A stretch of DNA of 64,000 nt from Podarcis liolepis (Eukaryota): the NCBI GenBank assembly GCA_965112155.1, contig OZ218106.1, one strand, 5' to 3'. This document shows positions 12,572-62,100 of the stretch, in pieces. The stretch's first letter is position 1. Each line of letters opens with the position of its first letter. The notes under the pieces are model-generated. The model did not search any database. It had not been told where the DNA came from and saw only the letters and a program-made list of their open reading frames with translations. The position numbers were made by a program, and so were the translations under genes.

Positions 12572-12865
12572 GGAAAAGTAAAGTAAAGCACCCCTGGATG
12601 GTTAAGTCTAGTCAAAGGCGACCATGGGGTGGGATGCTCACCTCACTTCTCAGGCCGAGGGAGCTGGTGTTTGTCCACAGACAGCTTTTCCAGGTCATGT
12701 GGCCAGCATGACCACACTGCTACTGGTACACAGAGCACCATGATGAGTGTCAGAGTGCACTGAAATGGGAGCTCACCCTGTTGCACAGATTTGAACTGCC
12801 GACCTTACGATTGGCAAGCCCAAGAGGCTTGGTAGTTTGGACCACAGCGCCACCCGTGACCCCCT
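12572..12865 (-). mobile_element. Sauria SINE (internally deleted) nested in a short hAT-like repeat
   Basis: Homologous to 44426-44796; TSD tggattcttga (12561-12571) / tggactcttga (12866-12876). Confidence 0.88.
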
Positions 12866-30468: not shown

Positions 30469-30837
30469 GGTAAAGGTAAAGGAACCATGGATGTTTAAGT
30501 CCAGTCATACTTGACTATGGGGTTGCAGCGCTTATCCGGCTTTTCGGGCCAAGGGAGCTGGCGTTTGTCCACAGACAGCTTTCCAAGTCATGTGGCCAGC
30601 ATGAGGAAACCGCTTCTGGTGCAACAGGACACCGTGACGGAAGCCACACAGTTTACCTTCCTGCTGCAACGATACCTATTTATCTACTCACTCTGGCATG
30701 CTTTCAAAATTCTAGGTTGGCAGAAGCTGGGACAGAGCAATGGGTGCTCACCTCATCATGCGTATTCGAACTGCTAGCCTTCTGATCAGCAAGCCCAAGA
30801 GACTCGGTGGTTTAGACTACAGAGCCACCCATGTCCC
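30469..30837 (-). mobile_element. Sauria SINE
   Basis: (AAAGGT)n tail, ggcgtttgtccacagacagcttt.caagtcatgtggccagcatga core, 5' end ...gccacccatgtccc. Confidence 0.9.
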
Positions 30838-44425: not shown

Positions 44426-44796
44426 CCGGGACGCGGGTGGCGCTGTGGGTAAAACCTCAGCGCCTAGGGCTTGCTGATCGCATGGTCAGCGGTTCAAATC
44501 CCCGCGGCGGGGTGAGCTCCCGTCTTTCGGTCCCAGCTCCTGCCCACCTAGCAGTTCGAAAGCACGTCAAAGTGCAAGTAGATAAATAGGTACCGCTTTA
44601 TAGCGGGAAGGTAAATGGCATTTCCGTGTGCTGCGCTGGTGCTGGCTCGCCAGAGCAGCTTTGTCACGCTGGCCATGTGACCCGGAAGTGTCTCTGGACA
44701 GCGCTGGCCCCCGGCCTCTTAAGTGAGATGGGCGCACAACCCTAGAGTCAGACATGACTGCCCCGTACGGGCAGGGGTACCTTTACCTTTACCTTT
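44426..44796 (+). mobile_element. Sauria SINE, full length, young
   Basis: gggacgcgggtggcgctgtggg head with B-box ggttcaaatcc, (ACCTTT)n tail, CpGs intact, perfect 23-bp TSD (44403-44425 / 44797-44819). Confidence 0.95.
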
Positions 44797-47261: not shown

Positions 47262-47944
47262 CTGCAAAAGGAAAAGGAAAAGCAATTGTACATACATGTG
47301 ATTGCATCAAGATCCTTTTGTGTGTGGTGTTTTACTATTTTTCACACATGCATGGATGTACTAGTAAAATAACACACAAAACCAACCTTCATGAATGGAA
47401 ATGCTGTTACATGGCTTTTGCTGTTAGCTTCCATTTTGTGTTTGGGGCTAACCAAAGATTGCTTTAGCTAAAACACAGGAACATGGGAATGACCATTCTT
47501 TCTTGATGTTACATCCAGTCTTGTAGTTGATTTCTCTATGCTTGGCCTTCTTGTCAGTGAGGTCATGAGGATCCAGGAAGTTGACTCATGGACTACCAGG
47601 GAGCTAGGTTGCAATAACAATAATAAGGCAAAATGATTGGTAAGATCACCAAATGATGGTTTATGCATCTAAAAGCCCCTACATTGAGCTCCAGAGACAA
47701 ACTTTCTCCATAAACCAGAAATTTTACACAAATATAGATGCAGATAGAAATGACCTACCCATTAGACAGGTGGAAGCAGCTGCCTCATGTGACAGAATCC
47801 CGCAGGGCCCCACCCACCCCTTTCACTAGGGTGTCATGGCAGCGGCTTCCAGAAAATTCTTATGAGAACTTGCTGGAAGCTCCCACAACTCAACCCCAGT
47901 AAGTGAGACTTCAGCAATGAGGGCAGCTGTGAGGAGTCCAGGTT

Positions 47945-48361
47945 CCCACATAGAGTGCATTGCAGTAGTCCAAGTGAGAGATAACTAGAGCATGCACCAC
48001 TCTGGTGAGACAGTCTGCAGGCAGATAGGATCTCAGCCTGCATACCAGATGGAGCTGGCAAACAGCTGCCCTGGACACAGAATTGACCTGTGCCTCCATG
48101 GACAGCTGTGAATCCAAAATGACTCCCAGGCTGTGCACCTGGTCCTTCAGGGGCAGAGTCACCCCATTCAGGACCATGGAGTCCTCCACACCTGCCCGCC
48201 TCCTGTCCCCCCAAAACAGTACTTCTGTCTTGTCAGGATTCAACTTCAATCTGTTAGCTGCCATCCATCCTCCAACCGCCTCCAGACACTCACACAGGAC
48301 CTTCACTGGTTCTGATTTGAAAGAGAGGTAGAGCTGGGTATCATCCGCATACTGATAAACA
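47945..48361 (-). mobile_element. L2 LINE reverse-transcriptase fragment
   Basis: YQYADDTQLYLSF, WMAANRLKLNPDKTEVL, LGVILDSQLSME, HALVISHLDYCNALY. Confidence 0.95.
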
Positions 48362-51300
48362 CTAGGCATATGCAAGAAAAACAGCATGAGTCACCAGGAA
48401 GACACTTGGTATAGTTATTGTTCTTGAAAGATAAATACATTTAGAAATAGCATCTACAAGATAAATCTTCCAGTTGAATCATCCTTGTTTACACGCCCCA
48501 ATCTTAGCAGAACCTTCCCTGCCATATTACTGGGTCTTCTCTCCTGTAACCCCTCCCCAATGCCCAGGCACACCTAGCTGTAATTTATCCAATCCCCTTT
48601 CATTTCCTCATTTTAACTGCCTCCCATTGGTCATCATGCCGGCTCACCTAAACACACTTTTGGATCTAAGCCCAATGGATACATGCCTATCTAAGCCCAA
48701 GTTTTAGCCTTAGTTGCTGTCAAGTCTTCTCCCTCTGTGCAACCTCTCTGTGTATCCCACGAACACAGAATCACATCTTTATGTCAACGTTGGACTTCAA
48801 ACCTAAGGCACAGCAAAGAGTCTATGCTGCTGATCCTGCACTCCAATATATTGAGGCCAAAAACTGGAATGTGCACCTTCCCAGCTGCACTCCCACATGA
48901 CTCACATGACCTGCGTGAGATCACTGAGCCCCAAAACACATATTTTGGGGCAAAATGCATGAGATTGTGACCTCACGATGGGATGTCTCAATTTAATTAG
49001 GGCAGTTGAGGGGTGGGCAATGGGGTTTATCAAGACATAAGCTGCTATTTTCAGAGCATATAATTTGGTTAAGTTATTTACGATCAAGTTGCTTATCTGA
49101 ACCAAGTCCGAAATTTCCCATAAATAAAATATTTTTTAATGAAAATGAAATCTTGGAATGGTCTGAGGAAAGGAGAACAGATGGGGCCTGCCTTTTAAGT
49201 CCTCGGAGACGACCAGGAAGAGCAAAGTCTTCTGTCTGGTCCACTCATGATCATTTTCAATAAACAGTATTTTAAACGAGGGAGGGAAACCGCAGATGGT
49301 GGGCATTTGTACTTCTTGTGTTGTACTATATAATGAGTAATAGTAAAGAGAAAATTCAAAACACAGACATTGTTTAATTTCCGATAACAGCTGGTGATAA
49401 CATGGGTACACAAACCTTCTGAGGCTTTCAAGTCAAGCTGTTGCTTCTCCATTCCCTCTGAAGGAATGTGTGAGGCTGGTTCAACATATGCCTCAGAATG
49501 AAATGGAAATAACAAGACAGAATGTTGAGGTACTTGACAACACAACTTCATCCTGCAGGTGGGGGAAATTGTGATCCTTCCTTTAATACAAAACAGAAAT
49601 ATTGATAAGTAGAAAACTAGCCAAGCTAGATTTTTAAGTGCGGGAAAGTGTTATGCAGTCAAACTCTTTTTAAAACAACAACTCTTTTTTAAAAAATGTA
49701 TCCCCTACATGCAGTTTGAAGTGCTACAGTCCATTTTGCCAGACAGCATTTTATTACCTCACTCTGATGTAAGTATAGACCAGCCTTCAACAACCCGGTG
49801 CCCTGACGATGTCTGGGATTACAACTTCCACAGCTGGGAAGCTGAGGCTGTTGGGGGTTATAGGCCAAAACACCTGGAAGGTACCACATTGGTGATGGCT
49901 AGCACAGACAATGCTTCAAACTTTCTCCTTGTGCAGGAATAAAGTAAAATAAAATAAACCCTCAACTATCAATCTGCAAAGCAGCAAATCATAAAGGTAA
50001 AATATGATGTTATAAAAAAGTTAGAACTGTTCCTCTCCAAATGCTTCTGGGGACTATTTGCCTAGCAGCATCTATGTTGGAACATTCAAAGCTAGAGGCT
50101 AATAATTTCATTTTTAGGAAGTCATAAACATCAATCCTTTTCATCAGATGATGAAAAGTAGTGTTGACTGAGTGTATCCAAATGACAAACATGTTATTGT
50201 GATATCAGTTGCAGATGCTTTAAGTATTATGATTCCTGTCTGTTTTGGTGACAGGCAAAGCAGAAGTAAATTTGTCTTCAAGAAAGGGTAAGATAATCAA
50301 TGGGTATCTGTGGTGAGGTCAAAAAGATAATCTCTGTGTTTTGTCCTGATCATAAAATAATCATTCATCACCAGCATCATTTCATGGCTATAATTTGCCT
50401 GGAGTTAGCCTTTTAAATGTGTGTATATTTAGAAAATCAGAGTGTAGTCAATATGCTAAGGAATATTTATATAGGATGCTTTGTTTGCACGTTACAATTA
50501 AATTAGAGAAACCTAATAGCCTATTTTGATAAAACTAGGTATTAGAGTAAGCAAATGTAAGAACTCCCCTATGTATTGCATTATGGTCCCCAACCATCTG
50601 CAGCATTTGATGGGGAGGGATATCAGGCTGCAAGAGACAGAACTTCCATTAGTGGATGCCAGAAATGCCCTTAATATGAGAGGAACTCTTCCCACAGATC
50701 CAACTCCATGCTTTGTTAACAATGAAAGCTGGGATATGCGCAGATCAAAACTGAGCCTCTACTTCTAATCTTTAACATGAATATTTCATAAATAGAAAAA
50801 TGTAGGTATTGATAAATCCAGAAAACATTTTCACTTTTGCAATAGAATTTTTCTTTCCTTTCTTCTCCAGTAGCCCTCACACAAACTCCAAAATTTGCCG
50901 GGGGGGGGGAACCACCTCAAGCAGATTAGGGGGCGGCATGTGGAGGATGTGAGGGGGGGGGCTGCAGAGGGAACCTCAGTCCATTCCACAAACAATTTCT
51001 ATTTCATTGGAGGGCCTTTTGATTTCACCCATAATATCACCAAGATATGTAATGATCAGATACTTTTGTTTCAAGAACTAGCAATCAATATAAAAATGAA
51101 AAGACTGCCTTTCTGTCAATATTTTGAAAGGCACATAGTTATCACATTAATCATGCAACATGTCAGGGCGAGATCAAAGTTTGAGAAACTTGGGCCACAA
51201 ACAATATTAAACAATCTATTAAGGTATCGAACAAGGAAATAATGGCAGGATTTCCTGGCAACTTGCCCATATCAAACTAAATGGGAGGAAGGCTTGGAGT

Positions 51301-55564: not shown

Positions 55565-55782
55565 CAGTGCTTTTTTCAGGAGGTAATCAAGGGTACGCAG
55601 AACCGGCACCTCTTTTGTTGTTAAAAAAGTGTGGCATTTACAGGGCTTTTTAAAAAAATTTAGCAGGAACTCTCCAGAACTCAGTTTCTGCACCTCTCAG
55701 GTGGGTGCCATTGCCATTCTAAGAGAACAAGGGAGGTGTTCATGGTGAGTCCCAGCACCTCTTTTTTTCAAGAAAAATAGCA
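55565..55782. mobile_element. Short non-autonomous DNA element, copy 2
   Basis: cagtgctttttt...aaaaatagca ends; homologous to 4600-4769. Confidence 0.7.
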
Positions 55783-55953
55783 ATTAAAAGACAATTAAAA
55801 GCATTAAAACTTTTTTTAAAAAAACACACAATATATTTATCATCATATTAGTATTAGAATTGTTATTGTGTGATCAGGCGGTGACAGCCTCTAGCCCCCA
55901 GGGATCATAAGGAATAAAGAAGCAGGGGCGTGAGTCACCACTTCACACACCAT

Positions 55954-56288
55954 AAAGGTAAAGGTACCCCTGACCATTAGGTCCAGTCGCAGACGACTCT
56001 GGGGTTGCAGTGCTCATCTCACTCTATAGGCCAAGGGAGCCGGCGTTTGTCCACAGACAGCTTCCGGGTCATGTGGCCAGCATGATTAAGCCACTTCTGG
56101 TGAACCAGAGCAGCGCACAGAAATGCTGTTTACCTTCCCGACGGAGCGGTACCTATTCGAACTCCTAGGTTGGCAGGAGCAGGGACCGAGCAACAGGAGC
56201 TCACCCTATCACAGGGATTCGAACCACCAACCATCCGATCAGCAAGTCCTAGGCTCTGTGGTTTAGACCACAGCACTACCCGCGTCCC
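55954..56288 (-). mobile_element. Sauria SINE
   Basis: aaaggtaaaggtacccctg tail, conserved core, 5' end ...acccgcgtccc; flanked by cacacacca direct repeats. Confidence 0.92.
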
Positions 56289-57049
56289 CACACACACCAC
56301 ATAGGGAAGAAAAGATTAAAGGATTCCACCCAAGGCCATAACCCCCAAAGATGTGATGAATTGCTACAGGGATGACAAAACCTGCCAATGCAGGAAAATT
56401 TCTTCCCGGTCCTTCAACAGCAACCAGTCAAAGACCGTTGCAGCGCTGGCTAAACAGGAAGAAAAAGTTAATCTGCAAACAAGAAACATTAAGCAAAGGG
56501 AGGCTGAATCTCCAGAGCCAACTGCCTGGCTATTGTCGGCTCCACCCCTATTTATAAATGGGGCTGGCCCCACCTCCCAGCAAGAAACTTGATTACTGAG
56601 GCTGGGTGTGAACCTCCAAAAACTAACACTGAGAGGCAAGCCAGCCCCTGTTTGCCCTGTTTCCCTGGGAACTGTAGCACCATGTGCAATCCTGCAAAGG
56701 GCACCCACAATGTAAACTGTGAGTGCTCATTGTTGTTGTTGCTAACCCCTTGATTTTTTCTCACAAATTTTACCTTATGTAACTCCTCTTTTCCTACTAG
56801 TAGTTGTGCTGAATTTTTCAATTTTCAATCTCCAAAAATGAAGGGTGCTAGAAAGTTTTAACATGACATGGGAATTCAAAATATATGTTGGTTAAATTTA
56901 GTTTTGCTTGGTAAACAACTACATAAAAATGTTGACTTTTTTTTTTAGATTTTTGTGTAATTTCTATTAACTCTCAATTTCAAACTTGTCTTATTTTTTT
57001 GTTAAAAATATGTGTGCAAAATTGCATACAGGTCAATAAAAACATTTGC

Positions 57050-59169
57050 CAAGTAATATGCTTGAGCATAACAAAAAGTGGAAGTGACAAGAAGACAAGA
57101 AAAGAAGGCTTGTTGAATATAAGCAGAGAAGTAAGCAGAATGCTTCAAGAATATCAGATGAAATAATTTTCTCTGCTGATTAATTTTATCTGCTGGTTAA
57201 AATGAAGAGCAAATGGCTAATGCCCAAATGAAAATGATGGAAGGCTATAATAAAAACTAGGTGGTGGGACATTGAACACCAGGAACTAACAGCAGCAGCA
57301 GAGAAAACATGTTCCCCGCTTAACTTTCAACTTTCTTGGGCATATGAAATTAACCACAATTATCTTGAATTTTCGCTTAATCCTCAAGAAAGAAGGGCAT
57401 TTTCGCTGGCCAGGTTTAATTCAAATTCTTCAAACCTCCTACTGCTTTTATGGATGCTGGTCTGATCATGAAGGAGACAAGAGACAAGAGGAGATCCAAG
57501 AGAAAGTTATGAAATCCCTGGATCAGGAATTTGATGATCTTTATCAGAAGGGTTGAATCAACTGCATCTTCTTTTACGACCATGAAGATACAACTCAAGT
57601 TATGCTGAGAGCAGACAGTTCAATAAGCAGTTCCCCAGCATTGCCACAGAACAGCATTATTCTGTGTGCAGTGAGGCATGTGGAAGATATCTTTACCACT
57701 TAAGAGAAAGGCTCAAAGAAAGAAAAACCTGCTGAAGTTATTGCTAATGATATGGTAGATTTCATGAAGAAGAAAGGCATTGATAAGAGCCAACAGGCCA
57801 TTGGAAGTGATTCTAGGAATGTTAACACTGGCTGGAAGGCTGGTACCATGCATTAGGTAGAGGCAGGGGCGTAGGAAGCGGGGGACGGGCTGCCCCAGGT
57901 GGCATCATGGAGGGGGGTGACAAATTATCAAGGAACAATTACTGCCCTACTAGGGCAATTCATAAAAAACTTTTTTTTTTGAAAATGCCTGCTCCAAAGG
58001 TCTTATCTTACTACACTAGGGATTATATAGCTATATCTGAAATTTCATGCATATCAGTTAATATCTTGACCCTCCTCCATGAAAATAGCTGTTTACTTGG
58101 CCGTTTTTCTATGTCATGAAGGCTAAAATTTCAATTCAGTGGAGTAGGGTCAAGATATTAACTGATATGCATGAAATTTCAGATATAGCTATATAATCCC
58201 TAGTTTAGTAAGATAAGACCTTTGGAGCTGGCATTTTTTTAAAAAAATCAATGGGGGGGCTGACAAGAAATTTTCTGCACTGGGTACCATCTGACCTTCC
58301 TATGCCTCTGGGTAGAGGTCAAGTTTGGTTGTAAGCTGATCTGGCGTCCTCCATGCCAAAAGTGTTGCCTCAGTGACACTTGATCACAGAACAAGTAACA
58401 TTGGCACGATACTAGACAGTGCTGCAGATCTTGAAATTGATCCTTCATTCACCAAACTCTCAACTGAAGAGCCTCTTACGTCACTAAGTGATAATGCCAT
58501 AAAGGTTCTTGTCTACTATTCAAGCATACAGATATCAGATCACACAGACCACAAGTACAAGAAAACTTCACACATATCTACCTCTTCTTGAAATTGTTCT
58601 AGTGAGCCGTTCCAGGTGGTTAACAACAGCAAACAGGCTTTGTCACATATAAGTTTCAAAACATGACTTAAAGGCAAAACCCTCAACATCGTAAGAATGA
58701 TAGTGGAATCCATTGTTTGTCTGCACTACCCCTACAAAGCAAAACACTCTTGTGTTCAGATGACAGTGATGAGAGGAGAGCTGGTATCCAAAAGAAAATT
58801 GACTTGAGGGGTGGAAATGATGAGACACTAGGAGATTTTCCTGTATGACTGAGGAAGACACATTCCATCAACCCCAGAGCTTTGTTCCTGTTGGAGCTGA
58901 TAGACAGGTCAGATGGGGTATATGAACCTTCTTTGACATGTAAACGTACTGCAGCAGAAGTAAAGAAGTTAATTGATGAGCCCATGCAATAGTCACAGTA
59001 GCCCTGTCATGCTCAGGCTATAGAGAGGTGTGTGAAACAAGTCACAGAGGCAGCAGGTAGGGTGTATACGCATGAGAAATGTTAGGGCCACATCAGAGGC
59101 CAAGAAGCAAGCTGGCAAATGAGGTCCAAGAAAGAAACAAAGCAAAACATGATGAAACCTGTTGTTTAA
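57050..59169 (+). pseudogene. Decayed hAT-superfamily (hATx/hATm-like) transposase fossil
   Basis: Frameshifted pieces: EQHYSVCSEACGRYLYH; AIGSDSRNVNTGWKAGTMH*VE|VKFGCKLIW (57797 onward); LH..LP.*HLI; SRWLTTANR (58611-58637); ELIDRSDGVYEPSLT; PCHAQAIERCVKQVTEAA (59002 onward). The left boundary is approximate. Confidence 0.8.
57864..58310. mobile_element. hAT-type MITE (447 bp) with ~98-bp internal inverted repeat
   Basis: TIRs CAGGGGCGTAGGAAG / CTTCCTATGCCTCTG; perfect 8-bp TSD ggtagagg (57856-57863, 58311-58318); arms 57982-58079 and 58140-58237. Confidence 0.92.
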
Positions 59170-62100
59170 ATTTCTTATTAACTGATGTCGTTACTTTCTA
59201 ATGTTGCTTTTTGATTCCAGGGTGATGTTATATGCTTAGTAGGATATGTTTTATGCAGAGAAACAATTTTTATAGCATTATCTGACATTTTCAGAAGGCA
59301 AACTTAAAATTCTTTTGATTTCCAAGAAGAGTTTATGTGCTTTTAAATCAAATGTAGATTTACCAAGCTAAGTGTTGTCCAACCACAAAAATAATAGCAG
59401 ATTTGAATACTTCAAACCCAAAAAAGTATGCTAAGACCCCTCACTGAAAAGAATTGCAAAAGTTAAAAGTGTTGCTCTCCAGGCACACCTGGAGGGCTTC
59501 AGTTCATAGTCTTAACAGCTATAACTGAGTTTGGTCTCAAGTATCCATCTGTGTGTGGTGTGAAAAGGGGACAGTCAAATGCAAATATATTAGAAATGAC
59601 TGAAAGGATAATGGCAGTAGCAGACAGAGGGAGTGGAAGGGAACAAGCTGGAGTGTTATCTGAGACTGCAATCCTATACCTTTTTACCTAGGAGCAAGCT
59701 CAATTTAACCCAATAAGGCTTCTTCCGAGCTAGATTTCTTTAACATCATAATAGGGAATGCTCTTCTGCAAAGCCACAACACAGTGTTTGCTATTAACAT
59801 ATAACAGTTTCCAGCATTGCTTCATAACACTAGGAATAACACATGGTGCCAGAAGTAGGCTAGTCTGAAGTACATTTCTGGTAAGGCAGTATGAAATATA
59901 AATATTAAATAATAGCATGCCATTGGCTCACAGAACGTGAAAACCCTCACAGGCAAATGAGCAGGTGCACATTTATGATGGCTCAGCATGAACACAGACT
60001 GTAAAAGTTATTAAGAAAGAAGCTTTGCGGTCCTTTTTAGTGCCACTTTTGGATGGCCAATAATAGAAAAGGAAAGCACAGCATCTTCAAGTCAGAGCAT
60101 GCAACACTAAGGAGCTCTAACCCAACACGTGACAGTCTGCGCAGAAAGTAGTATCTCTACAAAGGGTTGATATGATGGTGATCTGGCGTAAACATCAGAA
60201 AGACACAAACAGATTGAACAAGAGCTTAGAAGATCTACAAGACAAAGCAAAGCAATATGGAGACTGGTAGAACACGGCCTAAAAGACGTGGATAGCATTT
60301 GTGTTAAAGGGGCAGAGGGTAGATTTCCTTTTAGCAACGGATAAGTGTGTAAATTTTGATTTCTGTCACCGTCTCATTTTTATAGACTAGCTCAGTTTGC
60401 CACATTTCTGCATCTGTTTCCAAATTATTCTTTGGAATAATATGTTCATGAAAATTCATCAGAATTTTAGTGTGTCTCTCCCCTAATATACACATTTTAA
60501 TGTGTGTGTTTTTCTAATATACAGCATTTTGTTTAATTACACCTCCCATGCTCCCATCCAGCTCTGCTTCCCTGCACAATGGAATTTAATGATTCTCAGA
60601 GTATTAATGATAATTTGCATGAAAAGCTGGATGGGGATGGGGGAGGCCTGCACAGACTTCTCATTCCTGCATGAGTACACCCTCCTGCACAAATGATGAA
60701 GGAAACACACCAGAAGTGAGTCCTGCAGTAATATTTCTGCATGCAGGCATTGCACCTGAGGTAGAACTGTCATCATATCCTGTTTATTAAATAGTTATTC
60801 ATGAATTAAATAAAAAGCTTAAATTAATTAAGTAAAAAAGAGGTGAAGTCTGAAGCTTTTCCACCTGCTGTGCCCTCCCTAGAGCTACATTTCCCTTGCC
60901 TGATCATTTCCCATCTGCTCGCATTTCACTTGGATTATATATGGCATTTGTGTCTAGCCTGCTTCTTTCTAACATGCTGGCTTTACAAGCTGGCTTCCTA
61001 CAAACTCACCAGTTTTACAGGCACCGTTGTGGACTGTATCTCTTTTGCTCCTGATTTTGGTTTGCGGCAGACTGTGGCCAGGGTTAACTGTGTTAAGCTG
61101 AGGAGAGTTGATGTGTGTGGCGGAGATCCTGCCCTGAAGCTAAATATTCTGTCTTTTTTTGTGTAGGAGTTCCTTGGGCGGGAGAGAGCAAATTTAGGCA
61201 TGCCCAAGGGCTTTTGCGTAGCTAGTAGGCTCTCGCTTCCTTCCCCTTTGGCCAGTATCGCTTCACATGCTGTATCATAAATAGTTCCAAAACCTCCTGC
61301 TTTTCAGAAGCACCTTACAATTTGGCTGCTGCTTGAGAAACGCACAGCATCAAAGCCTGCTGGGTTTGACAAGCTTGTAATATGTTTGATGTGAAGAGTC
61401 TGAGAATACGGTGAGCCAGATCAAAGCTGTGTTCAGCCAGCTTGACAGTGGCAGAAAGCGTCAGAATGGCCAGTAAGATAATGGATCATACTGAATATTT
61501 CCAGCAGTTCAAGGGTCAAGTGAAAGAAAGCATCAGGAAAAAGTGTGTGTGTGTTTGCCTGTTGCTAGCATTTCCCTTCTTGCTAACTATACTACTATTC
61601 CCCATTAAAGCAGGAATACGGCATTGACTATAAGTATTCAGTTCTAATGAAAGAAACCAGTGAATTTTTTTTTTTGTATCATATTTATTGTCAAAATGTA
61701 GCTATTGTACAACAGAAAAGCCTACTAAGAGTTGGAGGGGGGGGGGATATGCCAAGCATATTTAGTTCCTGCATTGTTTCAAAATGAAACTTTGTGATGT
61801 TAGGCTATCTAGTGTGACAGGTGTTAACATGTCAAACAGAAAATTGCCATCTATATAGAAGCCAAAATTATTTATTGCTACTCTTCCCTTACACCACTTC
61901 TCTGCAAGGTTTTAAAATCCATATGGAAAATCCATATGGCTGTTTCATAGCTTTTTTGTTGTTGATCCTCCCCCTTCTTCAATAGTTATTCCTCTTGCTA
62001 GTTATGCGTTTCTCTTTTGATTGATGTCAGTTATGCTTGTGAGTTAAAAGAGCCCAAACCAAAGGATCCTTCATTCTACTCTTTTAAAATATAAGCTTAT

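Follow-up and report, generated by a model that had tools for sequence, protein, structure and literature searches.

The Transposon Copy and Its Parts

The window that we analyzed is a stretch of 64,000 nucleotides from the lizard Podarcis liolepis (contig OZ218106.1 of assembly GCA_965112155.1). It carries on its plus strand a decayed copy of a hATm-type DNA transposon which, aligned with the family consensus presented below, extends from about 56800 to 59466. A preliminary description of this DNA had given the range as 57050..59169, within which the transposase motifs do lie, but the element is wider. Six motifs follow each other on the plus strand in the expected order, scattered across three frames with stops: HYSVCSEACGRYLYH at ~57658, AIGSDSRNVNTGW at ~57797, LH..LP..HLI at ~58349-58385 (divided by a frameshift), SRWLTTANR at ~58612, VYEPSLT at ~58918, and PCHAQAIERCVKQVTEAA at ~59004. 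Because the intact relative P0311 aligns with the window in colinear pieces (tblastn, E 7.5e-68 to 2.8e-7), and a hagfish protein matches 58738-59166 directly, without recourse to the consensus (69% over 143 amino acids, E 3e-55), these motifs are not the product of chance; their reported order is thus confirmed both by position and by colinearity. A Pfam search with six window fragments gave no match.

The copy begins with its 5' end and 5' noncoding part (56800..57055, plus strand, 78% identical to consensus 7-254), in which the terminal repeat is degenerate and the start lies at 56798-56801. Consensus 255-997, which includes the N-terminal coding part, is deleted immediately before a transposase remnant that lies upstream of the core (57056..57243, plus strand). 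The first half of the core (57440..57863, plus strand) is 84% identical to consensus 1290-1739 and, at the amino acid level, 56% identical to P0311 residues 323-454; it contains the mutated site of the first catalytic Asp, which reads FFYDH instead of FFDGR, followed by the second Asp in GSDS.NVNTGW. The second half (58319..59169, plus strand) has the LH..LP..HLI and SRW motifs, the catalytic Glu in CHAQAIER and a stop codon at 59167-59169, and has suffered internal deletions of consensus 1817-1850 and 2218-2356. In the 3' noncoding part (59170..59466, plus strand) homology stops 28 bases before the 3' terminal repeat and, since these final consensus bases are missing, the target duplication is unreadable. 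Altogether, about 1950 of the 3105 consensus bases are left. A coding function of this copy is refuted by its nine stops in 481 codons, its frameshifts, its inserts and a dN/dS of 0.95. That it might be a domesticated or functional host gene, as its still readable C-terminal motifs could suggest, is scarcely conceivable in view of the same features, together with two nested inserts and the loss of the first Asp.

Nested Inserts and Neighboring Repeats

The two halves of the core are separated by a MITE of 447 bp (57864..58310, strand unassigned) with CAG(G/A)GGC(G/A)TAGGAAG ends and an internal palindrome of 108 nt, flanked by an 8-bp target duplication (57856-57863 / 58311-58318). The segment proposed earlier for excision, 57864-58318, was therefore correct, as it comprises the MITE plus the second copy of the duplication. 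Its family has 690 candidates in the genome, 40 of which were scored, with forward matches of 82-94%; most other copies have extra sequence near the 3' end, which the window MITE lacks. Going by its CAG termini, which we take to be a mark of classical hAT elements, this is probably a classical hAT MITE.

A second insert had been overlooked in the preliminary description, which recognized the MITE: a LINE fragment of ~200 bp from the C-terminal region of ORF2 (57241..57439, plus strand), which stands in place of consensus 1154-1289. It matches many genomic copies (89-96%), and these sit inside repeats of 0.6-1.6 kb with LINE-like ORF2 ends. The fragment is internal, has neither tail nor duplication, and replaces ~136 bases of the transposon; it was possibly captured in the repair of a break. 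Both MITE and LINE fragment are younger than the hATm copy and were inserted later.

Elsewhere in the window there are four related SINE copies (55953-56288, 44428-44791, 30471-30837, and 12578-12743; 68-79% alike), presumably Sauria SINEs, and a reverse transcriptase fragment on the minus strand at 47914-48390 (RVT_1, E 8.6e-7, just under cut-off), which is a LINE remnant.

The Family in the Lizard Genome

With the 3' 1.2 kb of the window copy as query, the lizard genome returned 531 candidates; the 40 that were scored gave 67 matches of 70-86%, the window excluded. As had been suggested beforehand, a consensus was built from other genomic copies, in all from 48 loci (40 longer regions, 7 shorter loci and the window copy). 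It measures ~3.1 kb and has an uninterrupted C-terminal ORF of 520 amino acids plus a recoverable N-terminal part, which comes from other copies, the seed copy itself having an N-terminal deletion.

The distance of copies to this consensus has a K2P median of 0.114 (range 0.067-0.207, n=48), a value that is biased downward by the choice of 47 loci as top matches to the window copy, which favors better-preserved copies. Between copies the minimal distance is 0.12 and the median 0.18, none of the 546 pairs being <10% apart, while the pooled dN/dS is 0.80. Among 125 protein matches (115 scored of 164 candidates) there is no intact copy, the best one reaching 72% with stops; about 24% of the residues have been lost (median identity 76%), and 92 of 711 CpGs are retained. 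The spread of K2P, the absence of close pairs, the dN/dS and the lack of an intact copy together point to what was likely a single burst, followed by near-neutral decay. Its age is likely some tens of millions of years: K/r gives roughly 40-60 Myr when rates of 1.9-2.9e-9 per site per year are borrowed from lamprey and tenrec (PMC4079192), a squamate neutral rate not being established (PMC3157835).

The internally deleted copies differ in their breakpoints, and so do not show a MITE subfamily of the hATm family. In the 5' noncoding part, at consensus 255-400, an AT-rich microsatellite adjoins a deletion breakpoint that is common to many copies. One genomic contig of 52 Mb (C21), possibly a sex chromosome, has many scored hATm copies relative to its size.

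Termini, Target Duplications, and Classification

The terminal inverted repeat of the consensus is perfect over 10 bp, TAGGGCGTGT, and is the same in the metagenome contig L102 described below; other lizard copies start with TAGGG(C/T)GTG. Five copies have two ends, and in three of them a 9-bp target duplication is found (8/9, 7/9, and 6/9 bases), the other two being unreadable; scored for an 8-bp duplication, the same copies agree at 1-2 of 8 bases. Thirty flanks show a preference for C-T at positions 1-2 and for A at position 8. Charlie, Tip100 and SPIN elements have CAG-type termini and an 8-bp duplication. Identity with these families, which had been doubted from the outset, is consequently ruled out by the TAGGG termini and the 9-bp duplication.

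The hATm group is described in PMC6004678 by TAGGGTG/CACCCTA termini and duplications of 8 or 9 bp. The consensus end TAGGGCG shares six of the seven bases of TAGGGTG, from which it differs by one transition, and one copy has TAGGGTG itself; the hATm list of the same paper includes termini that depart further. The family thus fits hATm, the comparison being one of termini and duplications with the published description, and the earlier proposal of a divergent hAT element, of hATx/hATm-like type, is backed on its hATm side by the same features. With hATx the comparison is by duplication length alone: 9 bp in the lizard family versus the 8-nt duplications used in PMC8721813.

The Transposase

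For the protein of the intact relative P0311, AlphaFold gave a model with a pLDDT of 90. Its best structural match is Hermes (Z 13.7, rmsd 5.1, 341 aligned residues; the next match has Z 10.5), with model residues 314-788 aligned to Hermes 133-609. In Foldseek, ISCth4 (E 3.9e-4) and Hermes (E 5.9e-4) are nearly level. The DDE core of the model is RNase-H-like and carries a large insertion domain, features by which hAT transposases are recognized. Pfam found no transposase family in nine relatives and did not detect the C-terminal dimerization domain PF05699, even though the Hermes alignment reaches residue 609; a PDB sequence search with a profile of 96 sequences gave no credible match (best E 0.13).

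Among the 96 relatives, the residues kept are D357 (94), D437 (96), C466 (95), H469 (96), R567 (96), W568 (95), and E754 (94). The D, D, CxxH, RW, and E motifs, to which we assign the roles customary in hAT transposases, are all present in the lizard consensus, the first D being the one that is gone from the window copy.

Relatives in Hagfish, Likely Soil Animals, and Other Taxa

Our searches covered protein collections, metagenome contigs and one animal genome, that of the lizard itself. At the protein level the consensus shares 91.8% identity with P0348, one predicted protein of the hagfish Myxine glutinosa (352 amino acids), and again 91.8% with P0311, an intact open frame of 801 amino acids (527 compared); several further open frames lie at 85-89%. 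Farther away are Mantella (72-76%), a fragment from the agamid Phrynocephalus (64%), and Hydra, snow crab and Aldrovandia (54-56%), the Hydra relatives being without a family name. All considered, hATm-like proteins are found in hagfish, fish, frog, squamates, crab, lobster and Hydra. The idea of a lineage confined to invertebrates is therefore not supported, since the closest named relative is the hagfish one and elapid snakes, an agamid, a frog and fish carry relatives as well. Two NCBI gene models, a frog ROS kinase (P0058) and a lobster MAGE-like protein (P0388), contain pieces of hATm transposase and are probably annotation chimeras.

A tree joins lizard, hagfish and P0311 with weak support (SH-aLRT 83; 83/90 without hagfish), placing the lizard consensus close to the base of the clade, on a branch of 0.015. 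P0311 shares 97.5% identity with P0306, a protein from a contig of 1.1 kb that had been binned as Candidatus Nephrothrix. Nephrothrix inhabits earthworm nephridia (PMC4445045). Pattern-limited searches for P0311 relatives yielded 24 pattern matches but none confirmed in GTDB genomes, and nothing in plasmids. Given the nephridial habitat and the lack of a GTDB relative, P0306 is likely to derive from worm DNA in the Nephrothrix bin, and by way of this one mis-binned contig the closest intact kin of the lizard element likely has a host of earthworm type.

The metagenome contig L102 contains an element that is complete, though decayed, and shares its ends with the lizard family. At 2297 non-CpG sites its identity to the lizard consensus amounts to 88.7%, in the noncoding ends to 86-87%, and it differs by a dS of 0.158 and a dN of 0.099, its own decay included; it keeps 17 of 22 ancestral CpGs and has no readable target duplication. 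An internal inversion occurs at L102:1396/2277, and short repeats of very high depth flank the element. For the more distant L101, dS is 0.665 and dN/dS 0.12, a purifying signal as expected between active elements.

At least half of the words of L102 are present in 12 of the 24 runs listed, which come from a non-lizard organism (A) and from soil and sediment metagenomes; holders of a small share (X18-X20 and organism B) were left out of the evidence. L102 is present also in RNA-labelled runs, contigs of which cannot show transcription. Within window 55600-60200, coverage by three runs of organism A (from two samples) and by one run from sediment is confined to the hATm segments, with zero depth on the SINE, the MITE core, the LINE core and the flanks, uncovered contig parts being weak evidence when taken alone. 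These runs differ from the window copy at 186 sites, and in 34 of the 40 listed they carry the letter of the lizard consensus, which provides an independent check of that consensus and suggests that the families of lizard and organism A differed little while active. From CpG retention, the soil and sediment holders and the missing lizard repeats, organism A would appear to be an invertebrate.

Could these close matches be artifacts of squamate DNA contaminating metagenomes and assemblies? Most of them are indeed metagenome contigs, and L102 and the lizard copies are equally distant from the consensus. We nevertheless deem this improbable, because P0311 and P0004 are long open frames, unlike the scored lizard copies, none of which is intact, the CpGs are kept in L102, this element is present in soil and sediment metagenomes from several studies, and lizard repeats are uncovered in the organism-A and sediment runs; the flank repeat of very high depth in L102, for its part, has no match in the lizard genome, a weak argument if taken alone.

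Horizontal Transfer or Vertical Descent

In evolutionary terms, the divergence of the transposon is far below that of its hosts, as judged from the transposon values alone (92% amino acid identity, dS 0.158, noncoding parts at 86-87%). Horizontal acquisition is therefore likely, considering the 91.8% identity to hagfish and P0311 and that of 89% to L102, which includes the noncoding ends and goes with a dS of 0.16; this closeness to hagfish, P0311, and L102 turns what had been a candidate for transfer into a likely case. If the element had instead been inherited only vertically, from an ancestor early in the vertebrates or bilaterians, and lost in other lineages, this could account for hATm-like proteins being spread from Hydra, crab and lobster to hagfish, fish, frog, and squamates, as well as for the hATm label in two birds. 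Yet we judge such descent very improbable: in the lizard copies about 24% of the residues were lost in one episode of decay, while the consensus is still 92% identical to hagfish, and the noncoding ends remain at 86-87% to a non-lizard element with a dS of 0.16. DNA transposons in vertebrate genomes evolve neutrally (PMC7070016), which also speaks against vertical descent.

The snakes require a separate discussion. Their fragments are short, with identities of 69-83%, and they resemble the lizard consensus (83 and 78% in two cases) more than P0311 (76 and 75%) or hagfish (76 and 73%). In a 30-row tree two of them, filling 13-14% of the columns, group with the lizard consensus (99/89) as sister to the P0311 group (83/90). 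This grouping, together with the hATm label in the corn snake, could be taken to mean that one old horizontal entry into the common ancestor of lacertids, agamids and snakes was followed by vertical descent, so that lizard and snake fossils would represent one invasion. We find this doubtful, though far from negligible. Eight residues are common to four snake fragments from different contigs but occur in no more than 2 of the 25-27 lizard copies compared, which points to a separate master element, and with an identity of just 60-64% the agamid fragment is remote from all. Moreover, since the lizard consensus lies near the root of a shallow clade, any member will appear closest to it. Finally, the split between lizard and snake dates to ~170 Ma, and a K of 0.11 would require a very slow rate to reach back to it. 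The snake-specific residues favor instead a distinct snake subfamily, and hence that snakes were invaded separately by a sister subfamily, as far as such short fragments can tell.

We thus consider it highly probable that the window contains a dead, internally deleted copy of hATm type, whose lineage entered the lizard, likely by horizontal transfer, likely expanded in a single burst and then decayed. By homology to Hermes, a transposase of ~800 amino acids would have bound to the 10-bp terminal repeats, cut the element out and reintegrated it with a stagger of 9 bp, preferentially at targets of the form C-T-n5-A-(G/A). A viral vector is unsupported by a pattern-limited search of IMG/VR for P0311 relatives (five pattern matches, none confirmed).

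A broader scenario, which we advance tentatively as possible rather than probable, is that a hATm lineage swept through soil invertebrates, lizard, and hagfish within the last ~40-60 million years while sister subfamilies separately invaded snakes, agamids, and frog; the source for the lizard would be earthworm-like prey, in which intact, possibly active transposases of 92% identity would survive. If true, it would make a transfer from annelid to amniote directly testable and supply a hATm enzyme competent in vertebrates.

Comparison with Known Systems

The window element is thus a real hATm fossil and likely a new case of horizontal transfer. Our literature search found no paper on this family or on hATm transfer into lizards; Repbase and Dfam lay outside that search, and the family may already be in either of them or in a RepeatModeler library. 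In a survey of 307 vertebrate genomes, 93.7% of the transfer events involved ray-finned fishes (PMC7070016). The RepeatModeler label hATm appears in its supplement for six species, namely the corn snake, three fishes, and two birds, and thus had already been applied to a squamate; in the supplements searched there is no lizard among these six, and no Lacerta or Podarcis. A hATm family at ~90% identity in lizard, hagfish, and soil animal provides a terrestrial, cross-phylum case in a little-studied hAT group, and it is unusual that one side of such a case offers dated fossil copies and the other open frames that are still intact, even if it reveals no new mechanism.

The lizard family resembles the hATm group in its TAGGG..CCCTA termini, 9-bp duplications, long DDE transposase, and Hydra relatives, but its consensus terminus reads TAGGGCG rather than TAGGGTG and Pfam detects no PF05699 domain. 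With Hermes, a hAT transposase of the Ac group (PDB 8edg), its intact relative P0311 has in common an RNase-H core with a large insertion domain, while sequence identity to P0311 is 9%, the rmsd is 5.1 A, and the duplication of Hermes is the classical one of 8 bp versus 9 bp in the lizard. Chapaev elements, which reptiles share with jawless fish and invertebrates at identities of 79-99%, have been interpreted in terms of repeated transfer (PMC4079192); they belong to another superfamily, and for the lizard hATm family the pattern-limited search gave no viral carrier. A parallel in squamates is SPIN, likewise a hAT invasion by horizontal transfer with patchy distribution that left deletion derivatives (PMC3157835), but it belongs to another hAT group with other ends, and lizard hATm copies stand ~11% from their consensus as compared with ~6% for SPIN in the copperhead.
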